A DNA stretch of 64,000 nucleotides from an uncultured Candidatus Binatia bacterium (GTDB taxonomy: Bacteria > Desulfobacterota > Binatia > Bin18). Each line of letters starts with the position of its first letter. Within the stretch, counting starts at the first letter, position 1. Location: positions 1,888,001 through 1,952,000 of the forward strand of contig OZ241744.1 in NCBI GenBank assembly GCA_965200965.1, given 5' to 3'. Below are positions 18,783 to 33,208 of the stretch, one piece after another. The notes below the pieces were generated by a model. It had not been told where the DNA came from. It saw nothing but the letters and a program-made list of their open reading frames with translations, and searched no databases. Made by a program: the position numbers and the translations under genes.

Positions 18783-20942
18783 ATGCACCCTTCCTCAACA
18801 TCCCGACAAAAAATGGGGCTGGGTCCCGGCCGGCGGCTGGTATCTGGCTTGGTGTGTCTAGGCTATCTGCTAGTGGCCGGGGCTCCCGCCGCCCAGGCCG
18901 AGGCATCGGCCAGACCAGACCCGGCCGGCGAGTTGTTTCGGCAGGGCTATCACGCGGTCCAGGCCGGACAGTTCGCCACCGCCCAGCGGCTACTGCAACA
19001 GGCGCGACAAGCCTATCCGCTCCTGGCCGATTACAGCCTGCACTACCTGGCCCAGGCGCAACTCAAGACCGGCCAGTCCATCCGGGCAAAACACACTTGG
19101 CTGCGCCTGCTCAGCGAGCATACGGGCAGTCCGTGGCGCGGACACGCCAAGCTGGCTTTGGCCCGGCTGGCGCAGGCAGAAAAAAACTGGCCCGAGGCCC
19201 TGCGCTATGCCGACCGGGCACACAAGGCTGAGGTGAAGTCGGTCCGGCACGCGGCCAGCCTCATTGCGGCCCAGGCCCAGGAACACACCGGCCGGCCCCA
19301 CGCGGCCTATGCCTTGTATCAGCAGTTGCGCCGCGCCGCGCCGCTGTCCGCGGCCGGTCAAACCGCCAAAACACACGCCCTGCGGCTGCGCCGGACGGCT
19401 GCGCTTCAGCCCAAGGCGGCGGCGGACTATATCGAAGAAATGCAGCTCCTCGTCCTGGAGGCTGACCAGCCAGCCCTGGCCGCCCTGAGTCGGCAGTTCA
19501 AGCAGCGCTTTGGGCTGAGCCGGCTCTCGACCCCACAACTCCGAGCCGTGGCCACACTCTATCGCGCCCAGGGCCGGACCCAAGACGCGGCCGCGGCCCT
19601 GCAAACGCTGGTCAAGCGATCGCCGGGCAGCGCCAGCGCCTTATACCGCTGGGCCAGACTGCTGTGGAACGCCGATCAGGACGGGCCGGCGCTTGACCTG
19701 TTTGAGCGCCTAGTCAACACCTTCCCCCGCCACCGGCTGGCGGCTGAGGCGCTGTACGCCATCGGTCGCATCCATCAATCGGGCAAGGACGAGACGCGCG
19801 CCAGCCGTGTCTACCGGCAGTTGGCCGAGCGCTTTCCCGCAAGCGCGGCAGCCCAGGACGGACGCTGGCGTCAGGGTTGGATGGCCTATCAGCGCGGAGA
19901 TTTTGGCCAGGCCGAGCAGCACTTTGCCGGCCTCGTCCGCCTGCTCCCCAACGGGGCGGCCAGCGCCCTGTACTGGCAGGCGCGCAGCCTTGACAAACAG
20001 GCCAGGCGCGACCGGGCAGATGCGCTCTACCGCCGGTTGTTACAGGATGAGGCCGGGGGATATTATGCCTTGTGGGCGGAAAAACGACTCGGGCTGAGGC
20101 CCCTGCCGCTGGCCCTGGCCGCCCAGCCCGAGGGCCGCAGCCCGGAAGGAGAGAACGTGTCGCCTTCCTCTCGACCGGATGACATGTTCACTCCTCCGCT
20201 CTCGCCACGCCTGAGTGTCTACTATCAGCGCAGCCAGGCCCTTGCCCGGCTTGGGTTGTTGGAGTTCGCCCGGCGCGAACTCGATCGTCTCAAAAAGGCC
20301 GCCCCGAGCGGCCCGGCCTTTCGGCGGTTTTTCCTGCGTGAGTACCACCGGCTGAACAGCCACCACCGTGCGCTACGCTTGGCCCAAGCCTTGCCGGCCG
20401 GCGAACGCCGGCCCTACGACTTTCCGCGCGCCTACTGGCCGGCCCTCCAGACCCATGCCCGGGCCCAGCGGCTCGACCCCTATCTGGTGCTGGCCCTGAT
20501 CCGCCAGGAAAGTCTGTTTGACCCCCGGGCCGTCTCTCCGGCCCGCGCTTACGGCCTGATGCAGCTCTTGCCGAGCACCGCGGCAAAGCTGCTTGGGCCG
20601 GGCATGGAGTTGCGGCTGACAGACCCCGACCGGAACATCGAACTCGGCACACGCTACCTGCGCCAGCTGCTCGACCGCTACAACGACAACCTCATCCTGG
20701 GGCTTGCCGGCTATAACGCCGGACCACAGGCGGTGGACAAGTGGCGCACCCGCTTCCCGTACGCCGAGGCTGACGAGTTTGTGGAAAACATCAGCTACCG
20801 CGAAACCCGCGATTATGTCAAAAAAGTGCTCCGCAATTATCGGACCTATCGACGGCTGTACGAGCCGGCAGGCGTCGTCAGCCGGCTGGGCCCACAGGCC
20901 CAGCCGGCACAACACGGGAGGAAGACCGAATGGCACAACTGA
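18783..20942 (+). CDS. slt: Soluble lytic transglycosylase with TPR superhelix
   Basis: ALIRQESLFDPRAVSPARAYGLMQL, AGYNAGP, ETRDYVKKV; TPR-like N-terminal region; carries a 17-aa repeat-derived insert. Confidence 0.9.
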   Translation: MHPSSTSRQKMGLGPGRRLVSGLVCLGYLLVAGAPAAQAEASARPDPAGELFRQGYHAVQAGQFATAQRLLQQARQAYPLLADYSLHYLAQAQLKTGQSIRAKHTWLRLLSEHTGSPWRGHAKLALARLAQAEKNWPEALRYADRAHKAEVKSVRHAASLIAAQAQEHTGRPHAAYALYQQLRRAAPLSAAGQTAKTHALRLRRTAALQPKAAADYIEEMQLLVLEADQPALAALSRQFKQRFGLSRLSTPQLRAVATLYRAQGRTQDAAAALQTLVKRSPGSASALYRWARLLWNADQDGPALDLFERLVNTFPRHRLAAEALYAIGRIHQSGKDETRASRVYRQLAERFPASAAAQDGRWRQGWMAYQRGDFGQAEQHFAGLVRLLPNGAASALYWQARSLDKQARRDRADALYRRLLQDEAGGYYALWAEKRLGLRPLPLALAAQPEGRSPEGENVSPSSRPDDMFTPPLSPRLSVYYQRSQALARLGLLEFARRELDRLKKAAPSGPAFRRFFLREYHRLNSHHRALRLAQALPAGERRPYDFPRAYWPALQTHARAQRLDPYLVLALIRQESLFDPRAVSPARAYGLMQLLPSTAAKLLGPGMELRLTDPDRNIELGTRYLRQLLDRYNDNLILGLAGYNAGPQAVDKWRTRFPYAEADEFVENISYRETRDYVKKVLRNYRTYRRLYEPAGVVSRLGPQAQPAQHGRKTEWHN
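20146..20196 (+). repeat. 51-bp palindromic element, copy 1 (in-frame in slt)
   Basis: AAGGAGAGAACGTGTCGCCTTCCTCTCGACCGGATGACATGTTCACTCCTC. Confidence 0.9.
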
Positions 20943-26219: not shown

Positions 26220-26270
26220 GAGGAGTGAACGGGCCGCCTTCCTCTCGACCGGATGACACCTTCACTCCTT
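26220..26270 (+). repeat. 51-bp palindromic element, copy 2 (thrS/ldcA junction)
   Basis: GAGGAGTGAACGGGCCGCCTTCCTCTCGACCGGATGACACCTTCACTCCTT. Confidence 0.95.
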
Positions 26271-28115
26271 ATCAAAGCCACGCGCATCTTCTTCTTGCAA
26301 CTGATTGACAAACTGCTCAACGGCCAGCACCTCGTTCTTGCGCGAGGTGCTTGTGCGCGAGGAGTGAACGGGTTGCCTTCCTCTCGACCGGATGACACCT
26401 TCACTCCTTACCGACACGGTGTTGTTGCCGGCTTCTTTGCCGCCGACAATCAGCAGGTAGGGGATACGGTGGGGGTGGGCTTTATGGATTTTGGCCGACA
26501 GCGGCTCAGAACTGGTGTCCAGGCTGACCCGCAAACCGCGTGCCACCAAGCGCTGACACACCCCGTCGGCGTAGTCCTGGAAGCGATCGCTGACTGGCAA
26601 GACCCTGGCCTGTTCGGGGGCCAGCCAGACCGGGAAGTGGCCGGCGCAATGTTCAATCAGCAGGGCCATGAAGCGCTCGATCGCGCCATAAATGGCCGAG
26701 TGGATGACGACCGGTGTTTGCAGCGAGCCGTCGGCGGCGGCGTATTTCAGATCAAAGCGTTGCGGCATCTGAAAATCGACCTGGGTCGTGGCCAGTTGCC
26801 ACGCCCGGCCCAGCGTGTCTTTCACGTCGATGTCGATCTTCGGCCCGTAGAACGCTCCTCCGCCCCTATCAAGCTGATAGGGAATGTTCTTGTCTTCCAG
26901 GAGAGCTTGGAGGGTGGTTTCCGCGGCGTCCCACAGGCTTCGGTCGCCCATGAAGTTGGCGGGCCGGGTGGAGAGTTTGCAGGAATAGTCCAGGTCAAAG
27001 GCACGATACACCCGGTTGATCATGTTGAGCAGGCGTTCAATCTCGGCCGGGACGTGCTCCTTGGCGACAAAGATATGCGTATCGTCCTGATGAAACATGC
27101 GCAGACGGGCCAAGCCGGCCAGGGTGCCGGACAGCTCGTTGCGGTGTAAGGCGCTCTCGTCATGGATGCGCAGCGGGAGGTCGCGGTAGCTCTTGGTCTT
27201 CAGCTTGAAGATGCTCATGTGGACCGGGCAGTTCATCGGCTTCAGCCCGTAGGCCCCGCCCTCTTGGTCGATCAGGAACATCTGGTCTTTGAATTTCTCC
27301 CAGTGCCCTGAGGTCTCCCATAGGCTCTGGTGACACAGCACCGGGCCCCGCACCTCTTGATAGCCCTCGGCCTTGAGCAGCTTGCCCATGCGGTCTTGCA
27401 GGAGCTTGTAGACGGTCAGGCCCTTGGGCAGCAGGACCGGAGAGCCGGGGCTGAAGGGAAACAGGGCAAACAGTTCCATGTCCTGGCCGATTTTTCGGTG
27501 GTCGCGCCGCTCGGCCTCCTCAAGTCGCTCGAGGTACTCGTGCAGATCGCGGGCGGTCTGCCACACTGTGCCATAGATGCGCTGCATCTGGGCCTTATTG
27601 GCATCCCCCCGCCAGTAGGCCCCGGAGATTTTGAGCAGCTTGAAATGGGGTAGCTGGCCGGTCTGCTGGACATGGGGGCCGCGACACAGGTCAACAAAAT
27701 CACCCTGTTTATAGATTGAGCAGGTATCAAGCCCCAGGTCGCGCATGATTTCCAGCTTGAAGGTCTGGCCGCGCTGGCCGAAATGGTCCTCAGCTTCTTG
27801 CCGGGACCAGTTCTCGTGCAGAAAGGGCAGGTCGGCCGCAATGTTGGCCCGCATCCGCTCTTCAATCCGCGCCAAGTCCTCGTCAGACAAAGGCTGGGGT
27901 GTTTCAATGTCGTAATAGAACCCGTTTTCTACGGCCGGCCCGACCCCCAGCCGGCTGGCCGGAAAAAGTTCCAGTACTGCCTGGGCCAGCACATGCGCGC
28001 AGGAGTGGCGCAGGCAGTGCAACTCGTAGTCCTGGTCGCTGGCAAAATCTTTGCGCTCTAACTCGTGGGACTCGCTGGGGAGGCTCTGCGGACTGTCGTT
28101 TTTCGCTTCGTTCAT
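26262..28115 (-). CDS. thrS: Threonine--tRNA ligase (no TGS domain, 17-aa C-terminal insert)
   Basis: RHSCAH, DLCRGPH, GAYWRGD, RDHRKIG, KPMNCP, GAFYGPKID, ERFMALLIEH. Confidence 0.96.
   Translation of the reverse strand: MNEAKNDSPQSLPSESHELERKDFASDQDYELHCLRHSCAHVLAQAVLELFPASRLGVGPAVENGFYYDIETPQPLSDEDLARIEERMRANIAADLPFLHENWSRQEAEDHFGQRGQTFKLEIMRDLGLDTCSIYKQGDFVDLCRGPHVQQTGQLPHFKLLKISGAYWRGDANKAQMQRIYGTVWQTARDLHEYLERLEEAERRDHRKIGQDMELFALFPFSPGSPVLLPKGLTVYKLLQDRMGKLLKAEGYQEVRGPVLCHQSLWETSGHWEKFKDQMFLIDQEGGAYGLKPMNCPVHMSIFKLKTKSYRDLPLRIHDESALHRNELSGTLAGLARLRMFHQDDTHIFVAKEHVPAEIERLLNMINRVYRAFDLDYSCKLSTRPANFMGDRSLWDAAETTLQALLEDKNIPYQLDRGGGAFYGPKIDIDVKDTLGRAWQLATTQVDFQMPQRFDLKYAAADGSLQTPVVIHSAIYGAIERFMALLIEHCAGHFPVWLAPEQARVLPVSDRFQDYADGVCQRLVARGLRVSLDTSSEPLSAKIHKAHPHRIPYLLIVGGKEAGNNTVSVRSEGVIRSRGRQPVHSSRTSTSRKNEVLAVEQFVNQLQEEDARGFDKE
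26359..26409 (+). repeat. 51-bp palindromic element, copy 3 (in-frame in thrS)
   Basis: GAGGAGTGAACGGGTTGCCTTCCTCTCGACCGGATGACACCTTCACTCCTT. Confidence 0.95.
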
Positions 28116-28129
28116 GGGCGTCTGTCGTC

Positions 28130-28180
28130 AAGGAGTGAACGGGCCACCTTCCTCTCGACCGGGTGACACGTTCACTCCTT
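28130..28180 (+). repeat. 51-bp palindromic element, copy 4 (thrS leader)
   Basis: AAGGAGTGAACGGGCCACCTTCCTCTCGACCGGGTGACACGTTCACTCCTT. Confidence 0.95.
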
Positions 28181-29380: not shown

Positions 29381-29451
29381 ATAGGTCGGCCAGCCATCCG
29401 GCGGAAGCCGACACCCCGTTCTGTCGGATTACGCTGCGCTCATCCGACCTC
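29381..29451. repeat. REP/REPIN-like element, copy A (degenerate ends)
   Basis: ATAGGTCGG...CATCCGACCTC; about 50-bp core identical to copy B. Confidence 0.8.
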
Positions 29452-29543
29452 CTGCCTGCTCATAGCAGGGAGCGGCCCGGGAAAGAAGGCTTGGCCGGGG
29501 CGGCGATTGACGTGGACGGAGGAATGATTATTCAAAGTGGAGC

Positions 29544-30214: not shown

Positions 30215-30287
30215 GTAGGTCGGCTTAGCCCTCGGGCGGAAGCCGACACCCCGTTCTGTCGGATTACGCTGCGCTCATCCGACCTAC
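30215..30287. repeat. REP/REPIN-like element, copy B (GTAG...CTAC)
   Basis: GTAGGTCGGCTTAGCC...GGATTACGCTGCGCTCATCCGACCTAC; two inverted GTAG-type REP hairpins. Confidence 0.85.
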
Positions 30288-30501: not shown

Positions 30502-31824
30502 TCACGGGTTGTTGCGCTTGCTAAGGTCGGCAAGCCCACGTTCCATCTTAGCCGCGGTGTCTTCGTCACCGGCCTCTCGGGCCAAGGCAAGCGCCTTCTC
30601 AAAATCCCGCCGGGCCTCGTTCACCCGGCCCAATAGATCGTTAGCGGCACCCCGATTGTAATAGGCAGCGGCTAAGTTCGGGTCAAGGCGGAGCGCTACG
30701 CTGTAGTCCGCAATGGCGGCTTCATGATCACCAAGTTTGTTCTTCGCATTGCCCCGGCTGGTGTAGGTTTCGGCATCGTTCGGGTCAAGGCGGAGCGCCA
30801 CGCTGTAGTCCGCAATGGCGGCTTCATGATCACCAAGTTTGTTCTTCGCATTGCCCCGGTTGGTGTAGGCACCGGCTAAGTTCGGGTCAAGGCGGAGCGC
30901 CACGCTGTAGTCCGCAATGGCGGCTTCATGATCACCAAGTTTGTTCTTCGCAACGCCCCGGTTGGTGTAGGCACCGGCTAAGTTCGGGTCAAGGCGGAGC
31001 GCCACGCTGTAGTCCGCAATGGCGGCTTCATGATCACCAAGTTTGTTCTTCGCAACGCCCCGGTTGGTGTAGGCACCGGCTAAGTTCGGGTCAAGGCGGA
31101 GCGCCGCGGTGTGGTCCGCAATGGCGGCTTCATGATCACCAAGTTTGTTCTTCGCATTGCCCCGGTTGGTGTAGGCAGCGGCATCATTTGGGGTGAGATG
31201 GAGCACCTTAGTGTAGGCATCTATCGCCGCTTCGTAATCGCCCTTTTCACCGTAGAGATAGCCAACGGAGAACCACGCCCGCGCCCCAAACTCTCGATCG
31301 ACGCTTTCAACCTGCTCAGCAATAGAACGCCACCTTCCGATGTGATCATCGCTCTTTTCCTCCTGCTGGGCCGAGGGAGAGGCCGGCGATTCTACTGCCT
31401 GGCGTACAGCCCGAGCGACCTCCAGAAAACCCTTGTCGTGTATCGATGGTGGCTCGTGCTCCACCACGGGCTTGCCGTCGGTGGGAACTGCCTCCAGTCC
31501 GCCGAATTGCGCTGCTTTCCAATCGCAGGGTCTCAGGATTACCGGGATCACGCACGCTGTCCCTTGCGCGTGTCGTTTCATCGCGATCTGCGTTTCCTTG
31601 TAGCAATAGTCTGAGGCAAGAAAGTCAGCGCTGACCAGGAGGAGGATGATATCCGCAAGATTCAAGGCATGGTTGATATAGTGGTCAATCTCTCCGCCAG
31701 GCGGAATGTTTCGATCATGAAAAATGTTGATTCTGCCTTGGCGACGAAGGAGGGCCAAGTGCGTTTCCAGTTTCTTCCAAAGAGCCTCGTCCTTGTGAGA
31801 ATAGGATATGAATACGTTTCTCAT
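30502..31824 (-). CDS. TIR domain + tetratricopeptide repeat protein
   Basis: VFISYSHKD...ADIILLLVSADFLASDYCYKE...VIPVILRPCDW (TIR_2-like) followed by about 7 TPRs (AYTNRGxAKxxLGDxEAAIADY). Confidence 0.92.
   Translation of the reverse strand: MRNVFISYSHKDEALWKKLETHLALLRRQGRINIFHDRNIPPGGEIDHYINHALNLADIILLLVSADFLASDYCYKETQIAMKRHAQGTACVIPVILRPCDWKAAQFGGLEAVPTDGKPVVEHEPPSIHDKGFLEVARAVRQAVESPASPSAQQEEKSDDHIGRWRSIAEQVESVDREFGARAWFSVGYLYGEKGDYEAAIDAYTKVLHLTPNDAAAYTNRGNAKNKLGDHEAAIADHTAALRLDPNLAGAYTNRGVAKNKLGDHEAAIADYSVALRLDPNLAGAYTNRGVAKNKLGDHEAAIADYSVALRLDPNLAGAYTNRGNAKNKLGDHEAAIADYSVALRLDPNDAETYTSRGNAKNKLGDHEAAIADYSVALRLDPNLAAAYYNRGAANDLLGRVNEARRDFEKALALAREAGDEDTAAKMERGLADLSKRNNP
30670..31180. 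repeat. Five near-identical 102-bp tandem repeats encoding TPR units
   Basis: Unit GGCTAAGTTCGGGTCAAGGCGGAGCGCC...GGTGTAGGCACC recurs with 102-bp period. Confidence 0.92.
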
Positions 31825-31858
31825 CTGCTCTCCTTGCACGGCTTGTATTGTACATTTT

Positions 31859-33208
31859 CTATGATGGAGGGCTACCTGCATGGACGCGGATTTGGCCCGA
31901 GAGGAGCTTGGGCAGCAGGGTATCCCGCAGGGCGGCGAGGGTCCGGGATTGGACAGCCACGGAAATGTTCTTCTCAAATATGGCGGACAGAAGACCATTG
32001 GCTGCCATCAGAAGCCGCTCCTCTGGAACCGCGCACAACGCCTCACTCAAATGCTGACGCTTGATATGCCCCATCGTTGTCGCCTTCCCCGCAGCAATAG
32101 CCTGGAAGGCGGCCAGATGACCCCGCAGGCAAGGCAGCAAAAACCACTGCGGAAATCTCGGCGAAGTCACCTTGAACAGATGTTGGTTCAGAGCGGCTCG
32201 TCCTCCGTACCAGACCTGCACCAGGAGGCTGCCCGACCAAGAGAAGATGATATCTCCATCGTCAATCACACAGTCAGGCGCAAGCTTGGCCGTAGCCCAT
32301 TCTCCGCTATCCGCCGTCCCGCTTCTCAGTTGGGCAATTTTCACCACAGGTAAACGGTCCTCGTCTTGCTGGGGTCTATATTGCTGGAGGGCAAGGCCGT
32401 TCCGAAAGACGGCGATCTCGTCAAGGGGCTTGACCGTCCACCCGGCGGGAATCGGCCCCAATGCCGAGTCTACAAAGCGATCGGGGAATAAGGCTGCTAG
32501 GGCCGGCTCCAGCCGGTCCAGATAGGCCCGGGCCCGGGCCACCGGCCATGCACTTCCCCCTGGAGACGCGCGTTGTGTGAGGGCGGCTTTGGCCTGCACG
32601 GGATCAAAGTTGATGAACCACGAGGTGAACAGCGCTCGGGCCATCTCGTCAAGGGTGGCGTTCATGCGCCGGTTGAGGGCGATCTTGTCGTCGAGCGTGC
32701 CCAGCAGGTGAGCGATGGCGCGCTGTTCAGGGAGAGGGGGTAGAGGAATCTGCCACTGGCTGAATGTCCGTGTCGTGATGGTCTCGAAGACAGTTCCATA
32801 GTTCAGCACCCGCATTGCATCTGCCGTGCCCTTCAAGGCATAAAACAGAAAGTCGTTATCGAGACCATCGTGGGGGACAAGGGCATAACACGTCTGGTTA
32901 AACGCCATATCTTGGCGAAGCTGAGCCAAAGCGCCCACCGTGCCGCGCGCGGTTATGATTACCGTGCCTTCAGGCATCCGTTTTGCCGAACTGGATTTCA
33001 GGCCCTTTTCTGTAATGTACTCGTGCGCTTGTTCCACATACCGGCCTGACGTGTTGGCGATATCTTTTGCCGTGACCCACGGAATGGTTCCACGCCAGTA
33101 TTCTGCTACACGGCGGCTCGGCGTCCCCCCTATCACGGCACTGGCAACTGCAGACACCCGCACTCTTTGCCACTCGTCCCGTATTCCCCCTTTCTGCGGC
33201 ACTACCAC
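31859..33208 (-). CDS. hsdS: Type I restriction-modification specificity subunit (orphan)
   Basis: GGTPSR...IPWVTAKD TRD, PPLPEQRAIAHLLGTLDDKIALNRRMN spacer, LAALRDTLLPKLLSGQI C-terminus; start uncertain. Confidence 0.9.
   Translation of the reverse strand: MVVPQKGGIRDEWQRVRVSAVASAVIGGTPSRRVAEYWRGTIPWVTAKDIANTSGRYVEQAHEYITEKGLKSSSAKRMPEGTVIITARGTVGALAQLRQDMAFNQTCYALVPHDGLDNDFLFYALKGTADAMRVLNYGTVFETITTRTFSQWQIPLPPLPEQRAIAHLLGTLDDKIALNRRMNATLDEMARALFTSWFINFDPVQAKAALTQRASPGGSAWPVARARAYLDRLEPALAALFPDRFVDSALGPIPAGWTVKPLDEIAVFRNGLALQQYRPQQDEDRLPVVKIAQLRSGTADSGEWATAKLAPDCVIDDGDIIFSWSGSLLVQVWYGGRAALNQHLFKVTSPRFPQWFLLPCLRGHLAAFQAIAAGKATTMGHIKRQHLSEALCAVPEERLLMAANGLLSAIFEKNISVAVQSRTLAALRDTLLPKLLSGQIRVHAGSPPS

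Follow-up and report, generated by a model that had tools for sequence, protein, structure and literature searches.

A 51-bp palindromic element in frame in the only threonyl-tRNA synthetase gene of a Candidatus Binatia bacterium, with host topoisomerase I as a tentative candidate for its mover

The closest described counterparts of the element studied here are the Rickettsia palindromic elements (RPEs), which the available parts of the reports describe as non-autonomous palindromes lying in frame in conserved genes, including those for PheRS beta and IleRS, with an RPE-bearing guanylate kinase that remains active (PMC2229807, PMC10969869, PMC3767692). Like RPEs, the palindromes of the present family are scattered over the genome, and many lie within conserved genes without breaking the frame (44 of 95 copies are in predicted genes). 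The element is shorter (51-55 bp, against about 100-150 bp in RPEs) and is found in another lineage than Rickettsia, the two being set apart by length and host and not by sequence comparison. It also differs in its clean join, with no duplication of the target, and in a one-strand target rule, namely a C four bases 5' of the insertion point, hereafter C(-4). In-frame palindromes in synthetases were already known from Rickettsia; what is new here is the one-strand C(-4) rule. Among the papers that literature searches listed, none was seen to describe this repeat family or a repeat moved by TopA.

Other short repeats are similar in some respects. GTAG and CGTC REPs, and REPINs with their RAYT, are also short hairpins, some of them intragenic, for which single-strand mobility has been proposed; the parts of the sources at hand describe REPs with an unpaired terminal tag, a stem of 8-9 bp, a loop of 4-5 nt and a CCA tail (PMC3733652, PMC3116915). 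The present element, in contrast, has 16-bp arms, a 19-nt head and no tail, its TGTC being within a paired arm; moreover, nearly half of its copies are in genes, and a RAYT/Y1 gene is absent from this genome and from the compared genome G007. With classical MITEs the element shares terminal inverted repeats, but the target site duplication is absent here. In the peel-and-paste cycle of IS200/IS605 elements a single strand is excised and inserted with no target duplication, whereas in our case transposase and tetranucleotide target are both missing, and C(-4) marks the end of each element strand.

A further comparison involves an enzyme and not a repeat. Bacterial type IA topoisomerases require a C four bases 5' of the single-strand cut, and E. 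coli topoisomerase I has the motif TCNTTA/T, the cut falling at T|A, with R169, R173 and Y177 reading the base; these are relaxation sites, with no transposition described in the available parts of the sources (PMC9352719, PMC9960139, PMC3467081). The ends of the element fit TCNTT|A, but its targets do not show the TT|A or the AT-richness.

The gene thrS, which encodes a threonyl-tRNA synthetase (ThrRS) of 617 amino acids (TIGR00418, 633 bits against a cut-off of 384), is located at positions 26262..28115 on the minus strand of the window, that is, the whole stretch of 64,000 nucleotides that was analysed. At 26359..26409, on the same strand, it carries in frame a 51-bp hairpin element, an imperfect palindrome whose 16-bp arms enclose a 19-nt head; it lengthens the protein by 17 residues, placed behind Val569. 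The insertion point lies between the second and third bases of the Val569 codon, the first full codon of the element being that of Arg570 (26406..26408, minus strand), and across the insert the protein reads VSV-R570-SEGVIRSRGRQPVHSS-R587-TSTSRKNE. Fourteen of the 44 in-gene copies of the family share the phase and the orientation of the thrS copy.

The original prediction of a precise in-frame insertion was borne out by the alignment of thrS with its counterparts in congeners, which show a clean 51-base gap and an exact empty site with zero duplicated bases (6/6 congeners by DNA alignment, 5/5 by translation). It had also held that an AGG codon of the element keeps an arginine at the position of E. 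coli Arg609, and in the alignment with 1QF6 it is indeed Arg570, encoded by the conserved AGG end of the element, that takes this position, while the native Arg persists as Arg587. As for the canonical V.VRTR strand expected on removal of the insert, its first Arg is kept as Arg587, and the displaced native segment now reads Arg587-Thr588-Ser589 (26349..26357, minus strand), where congeners have RTR or RKR, and its second Arg has thus become Ser.

Two trivial accounts of the insert, both anticipated at the outset, were ruled out. An assembly artefact is incompatible with contig 11 of run X11, which comes from a separate study and, with 7 differences, spans 26241-26700 unbroken, insert included, and with the presence of each junction of the insert on separate contigs in five more runs (X1, X3, X6, X4 and X10). 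No joint skipping the 51 bases was found among the joints listed in the contigs of the sequencing runs, contigs being assemblies that drop rare variants. That the insert-bearing gene might be a second copy is excluded by the genome itself, a single contig estimated as 99.3% complete, in which we found one thrS and three tRNA-Thr genes. Several of the sequencing runs with matching DNA are sponge metagenomes.

About 95 copies make up the family to which the element belongs in this genome, and three more of them are inside the window. The second copy (26220..26270, minus strand; 49/51 identical) sits at the old thrS stop, where it adds two residues and a new TGA and leaves the start of the next gene intact. 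The third (28130..28180, minus strand) precedes the thrS start by 15 bases and is absent at the G007 site. The fourth (20146..20196, minus strand) lies in frame within the gene of a TPR/lytic transglycosylase (18783-20942, plus strand), whose direction is opposite to its own, and corresponds to a 17-residue gap in the comparison with G007. A profile search recovered 77 loci in the genome, and a structure-aware detector 96, against 2 in the reversed-genome control; one of the 96 matches, at position 2926285, was judged spurious and removed before anything was counted, which leaves 95.

According to our own simple gene caller, 10 copies run across the end of a gene and 41 lie between genes, in addition to the 44 inside genes, whose hosts include murJ, murF, dnaX and the genes for the CCA-adding enzyme and an AddA-like helicase. 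One third of G007 was compared, and within it a spanning orthologue was available for 28 of the 44 in-gene copies; 18 of these 28 showed an exact 17-residue gap in G007, and none introduced a stop. The copies also seem to hop locally, 21 of the 95 having their closest relative within 20 kb, against a mean of 3.6 and a maximum of 11 in permutations. Replication-strand bias was not found among the 95 copies (54/95).

The arms co-vary in sequence: 12 of the 16 arm pairs have changes on both sides. In 63 clean-ended copies the terminal pair is A..C in 26, G..T in 21, A..T in 13 and G..C in 3, the mismatched combinations being above chance (Fisher p 3e-5). The arms, too, contain mirror-image mismatches. 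Such terminal and arm mismatches suggest that the head may flip relative to the ends. Of 54 other genomes of the taxonomic family, 26 have related forms of 50-56 bp; all 26 belong to two genera, and eight further genera gave none. The 16-bp terminal inverted repeats are present, and in relatives the spacer is more variable. The exact pattern had no match in viral contigs, nor the 51-bp form in metagenome contigs. No autonomous copy was recognised among the unpaired arms of this genome or the lone arms of relatives, judging from the matches listed, which are noisy.

The insertion sites follow a simple rule. Target duplication is absent, the longest repeat being 0-3 bases at all 95 sites; for 60 of 77 sites the counterpart in G007 could be located, and a precise empty site was found in 27 of the 57 full-length ones. 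When pooled, the flanks show C at -4 and G at +4 and look symmetric. Site by site, nevertheless, the 63 clean-ended copies divide into 20 with C(-4) only, 23 with G(+4) only, 17 with both and 3 with neither. Sites with one of the two letters have the other less often than chance would give (Fisher p 0.0006), which is the expectation for a rule acting on one strand, and the symmetry of the pooled profile is therefore an artefact of pooling. In other words, 60 of the 63 sites have C(-4) on at least one strand, where about 33 would be expected by chance; in a local null of 5000 draws the class with neither had a mean of 29.8 and a minimum of 16, compared with the 3 observed. Among 48 combinations of letter and offset tested, C(-4) gave the strongest signal (p 4e-14), and the target preference as a whole is T/G(-5) plus C(-4). 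The thrS site conforms to it, with T(-5) C(-4) at 26413..26414 on the minus (coding) strand, a pair also found in the empty allele.

The rule was replicated in other sets of sites: in 25 of the 27 empty alleles, in 28 of the 32 remaining copies of this genome and in 11 of 12 sites of G007. Relatives gave 37/46 and then, in fresh sites, 25/31 (pooled 62/77, Fisher p 0.003). The C is missing at 3 of the 63 clean-ended sites of this genome and at 15 of the 77 in relatives. No coding-strand bias of C(-4) was found inside genes (10 vs 9), and no replichore bias (23/43). The element's own 3' ends carry the same letter at the same distance: of all arm positions C(-4) is conserved best (181 of 190 ends), its surroundings being T(-5), T(-2) and T/C(-1), typically TCCTT, and the commonest first base of the element is A. 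The corresponding count at element ends in relatives (46/46) was built into the search pattern and was excluded as evidence.

The C(-4) rule, the literature on type IA topoisomerases and the failure to find a fitting mover among the enzyme families searched led us to favour a single-strand peel-and-paste carried out by the host enzyme, TopA. The scheme would start with TopA cutting one strand at both junctions, each with a C(-4), one in the old flank and the other in the element end. The cut strand would close to a small circle with the junction TCNTT|A, and the circle, once reopened, would be joined to single-stranded DNA nearby at a C(-4) site. The new copy would then be fixed by replication, and the 17-codon length would allow copies to survive in genes. 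Taken as a whole, our tentative and nearly evenly balanced reading is that of a selfish 51-bp hairpin, in frame in the sole thrS, probably forming a floppy loop in the protein and probably moved as a single strand by TopA. We are somewhat more reserved about the general proposition that an element without any protein hijacks TopA as its transposase, with ends that would be optimal TopA sites, with landing at TopA sites in any DNA and with a 17-codon length by which essential genes could be colonised.

Some considerations temper this proposal. The match to the TopA motif was noticed after the fact and not predicted. As a putative substrate for TopA, the element shows C(-4) from each junction on one strand, but T|A and AT-rich surroundings are found at the element ends only, and not in the targets, whether our own sites or those of relatives. 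In the folded hairpin the ends are base-paired, while the DNA that TopA cleaves is single-stranded, and the scheme does not account for the conserved 19-nt head. The genome has a single, intact-looking TopA gene, its core at about 1843241-1844530 of the contig, that keeps the equivalents of R169, R173 and Y177. Its presence is not evidence for the mechanism, because the gene is universal and genome G004 has TopA without the element. The TopA of two genomes of genus g8 (L271, L272) belongs to another, longer type in which Phe occupies the place of Tyr177.

Should the hijack of TopA be true, it would supply a mechanism for transposase-less coding palindromes that lack a known mover. A target rule so sharp and replicated points to a host enzyme that can be purified, which makes the question of mobility directly testable, and the TopA model predicts a specific change, from C to A at -4, with an R169A-type mutant.

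Less probable, though it would account for several of the same observations, is a dedicated single-strand transposase, HUH-like or of some other family, now lost or acting in trans and needing the C at -4, the insert being tolerated as before. The lack of target duplication, the hairpin, the local hopping and the one-strand target rule all agree with such an enzyme; confinement of the family to two genera is what a specific partner would produce, and Y1 genes do occur in 3 of 7 congeners. Known HUH targets, however, are tetranucleotides or dinucleotides adjoining the cut, and a lone C(-4) is unlike them. The Y1 gene is missing from both this genome and G007, and paired element arms were not found at the 12 Y1 loci examined. 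Our search likewise found no IS110, resolvase, ISAzo13 or topoisomerase IB genes in these two genomes, and only two tyrosine recombinases in each, likely XerC and XerD. Some transposase families were covered by the search, and a dedicated mover may have been lost.

As a side observation, the element-rich genomes (this one, G007, G097 and G129) had no resolvase or IS110 and 2-3 tyrosine recombinases, and the element-free G004 gave 13 matches to recombinases, 5 to resolvases and 1 to IS110.

We consider it improbable that the family represents a MITE moved in double-stranded form by a DDE transposase or a recombinase whose cuts have a stagger of zero bases. The 16-bp terminal inverted repeats, which such an enzyme would recognise, the more variable spacer of relatives and the symmetric look of the pooled targets speak in its favour. 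Against this, the symmetry comes from pooling sides that are negatively associated, the arms co-vary, unlike fixed binding sites, ISAzo13 was not found in the two carrier genera, and the search for an autonomous copy found none.

Spread through RNA, either by reverse transcription or by reverse splicing and perhaps by imitating an RNA of the host, is more doubtful still. It could explain why 35 of the 44 in-gene copies are oriented as the host gene, a number above the availability of open frames (p 0.003), and the head loosely resembles SRP RNA. That likeness was rejected as an indication of origin (p 0.18, with Rfam giving no SRP or other relevant match), and so was selection on an RNA strand of the stem, in which G-U and A-C mismatches are balanced (90 vs 100). 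The sole reverse transcriptase gene found in this genome is split by an in-frame stop, is open in G007 (L250:1048-2421; L251:1225-2421) and is unrelated to the element; the element-free G004 has a reverse transcriptase as well, and a search of the element-rich G129 found none.

Whichever way the element reached thrS, the gene seems to be still in use. Its dN/dS against the six congeners is 0.08-0.11, and outside the insert the strain variants comprise 24 silent and 3 replacement changes (24/27 silent, p 7e-13), whereas inside the insert 3 of 3 are replacements; some of the X12 contigs in this count are not physically linked to the insert. The gene is under purifying selection, of which the insert shows no sign. 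An AlphaFold2 model, built from an alignment of 60 sequences (mean pLDDT 85.9), matches ThrRS structures; it keeps the strand 566-571, with Arg570 in it, and turns 572-593 into coil (pLDDT about 51-66), after which the next strand and helix resume. We regard the insert as likely translated into a floppy loop that follows the anticodon-contacting strand.

The model is, however, weak evidence on the register of the strand, as the alignment supplied favoured the register that was returned. Better evidence is given by the native RTR, which has drifted to RTS 3' of the insert, and by S591L in one strain group. In the available parts of the source, the residues with which the E. coli anticodon-binding domain makes contact are Arg583, Glu600 and Arg609 (PMC6430810). 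Here Glu561 corresponds to Glu600 and Arg570 to Arg609, and the Arg583 position is occupied by His544; His is present in the insert-free congeners too. The Arg609 equivalent is less conserved (88 Arg and 32 Asn among 120 homologues) than the Arg611 equivalent (Arg in 115/120), at which the present protein has Glu572 in the new register or Ser589 in the displaced segment. With an Arg absent from the latter position in both registers, the motif of the anticodon strand is not fully restored.

Such a result qualifies the suggestion that the insertion is tolerated right beside the tRNA-recognition residue: purifying selection on the only thrS speaks for it, and the loss of the Arg611 equivalent against. 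Even so, judging from selection, the enzyme is very probably active, Arg570 standing in for the native Arg, and this copy offers a natural test of how much the anticodon-binding domain tolerates beside Arg609. It is most improbable that the insert cripples ThrRS or is excised from the mRNA, so that the protein would not be made as read: the missing Arg611 equivalent would fit, and replacement changes inside the insert are also expected of an untranslated piece, but the gene is the sole thrS and under purifying selection, 18 of the 28 testable in-gene copies are exact, stop-free inserts of 17 residues, and the native Arg two residues on would hardly have drifted to Ser were the insert removed.

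The protein encoded by thrS (26262-28115) is 88-93% identical to its counterparts in six congeners and 46-49% identical to other ThrRS of the taxonomic family and of the congener G002. The two closest database relatives of the product have no TGS domain annotation, and G170 has both ThrRS types, all of which suggests a horizontally acquired ThrRS. The C-terminal tail of the native ThrRS holds an independent in-frame copy of 54 bp in 4 of 28 genomes of genus g8 (L172:2009-2062, L174:2009-2062, L176:1374-1427 and L184:1377-1430).

Other repeats were found in the vicinity and elsewhere in the genome. A second type, which we take to be GTAG-REP-like, occurs at 29392-29455 and 30227-30285 of the window, with 6 matches in the genome and no Y1 transposase. 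An ORF on the minus strand (30502-31998), presumably with a TIR-like start, contains six 102-bp tandem repeats and adjoins an ORF similar to type I restriction specificity subunits. Two large tandem arrays, at about 271700-305600 and 1131700-1165200 of the contig, are made up of related units of ~2.4 kb with ~90% identity.
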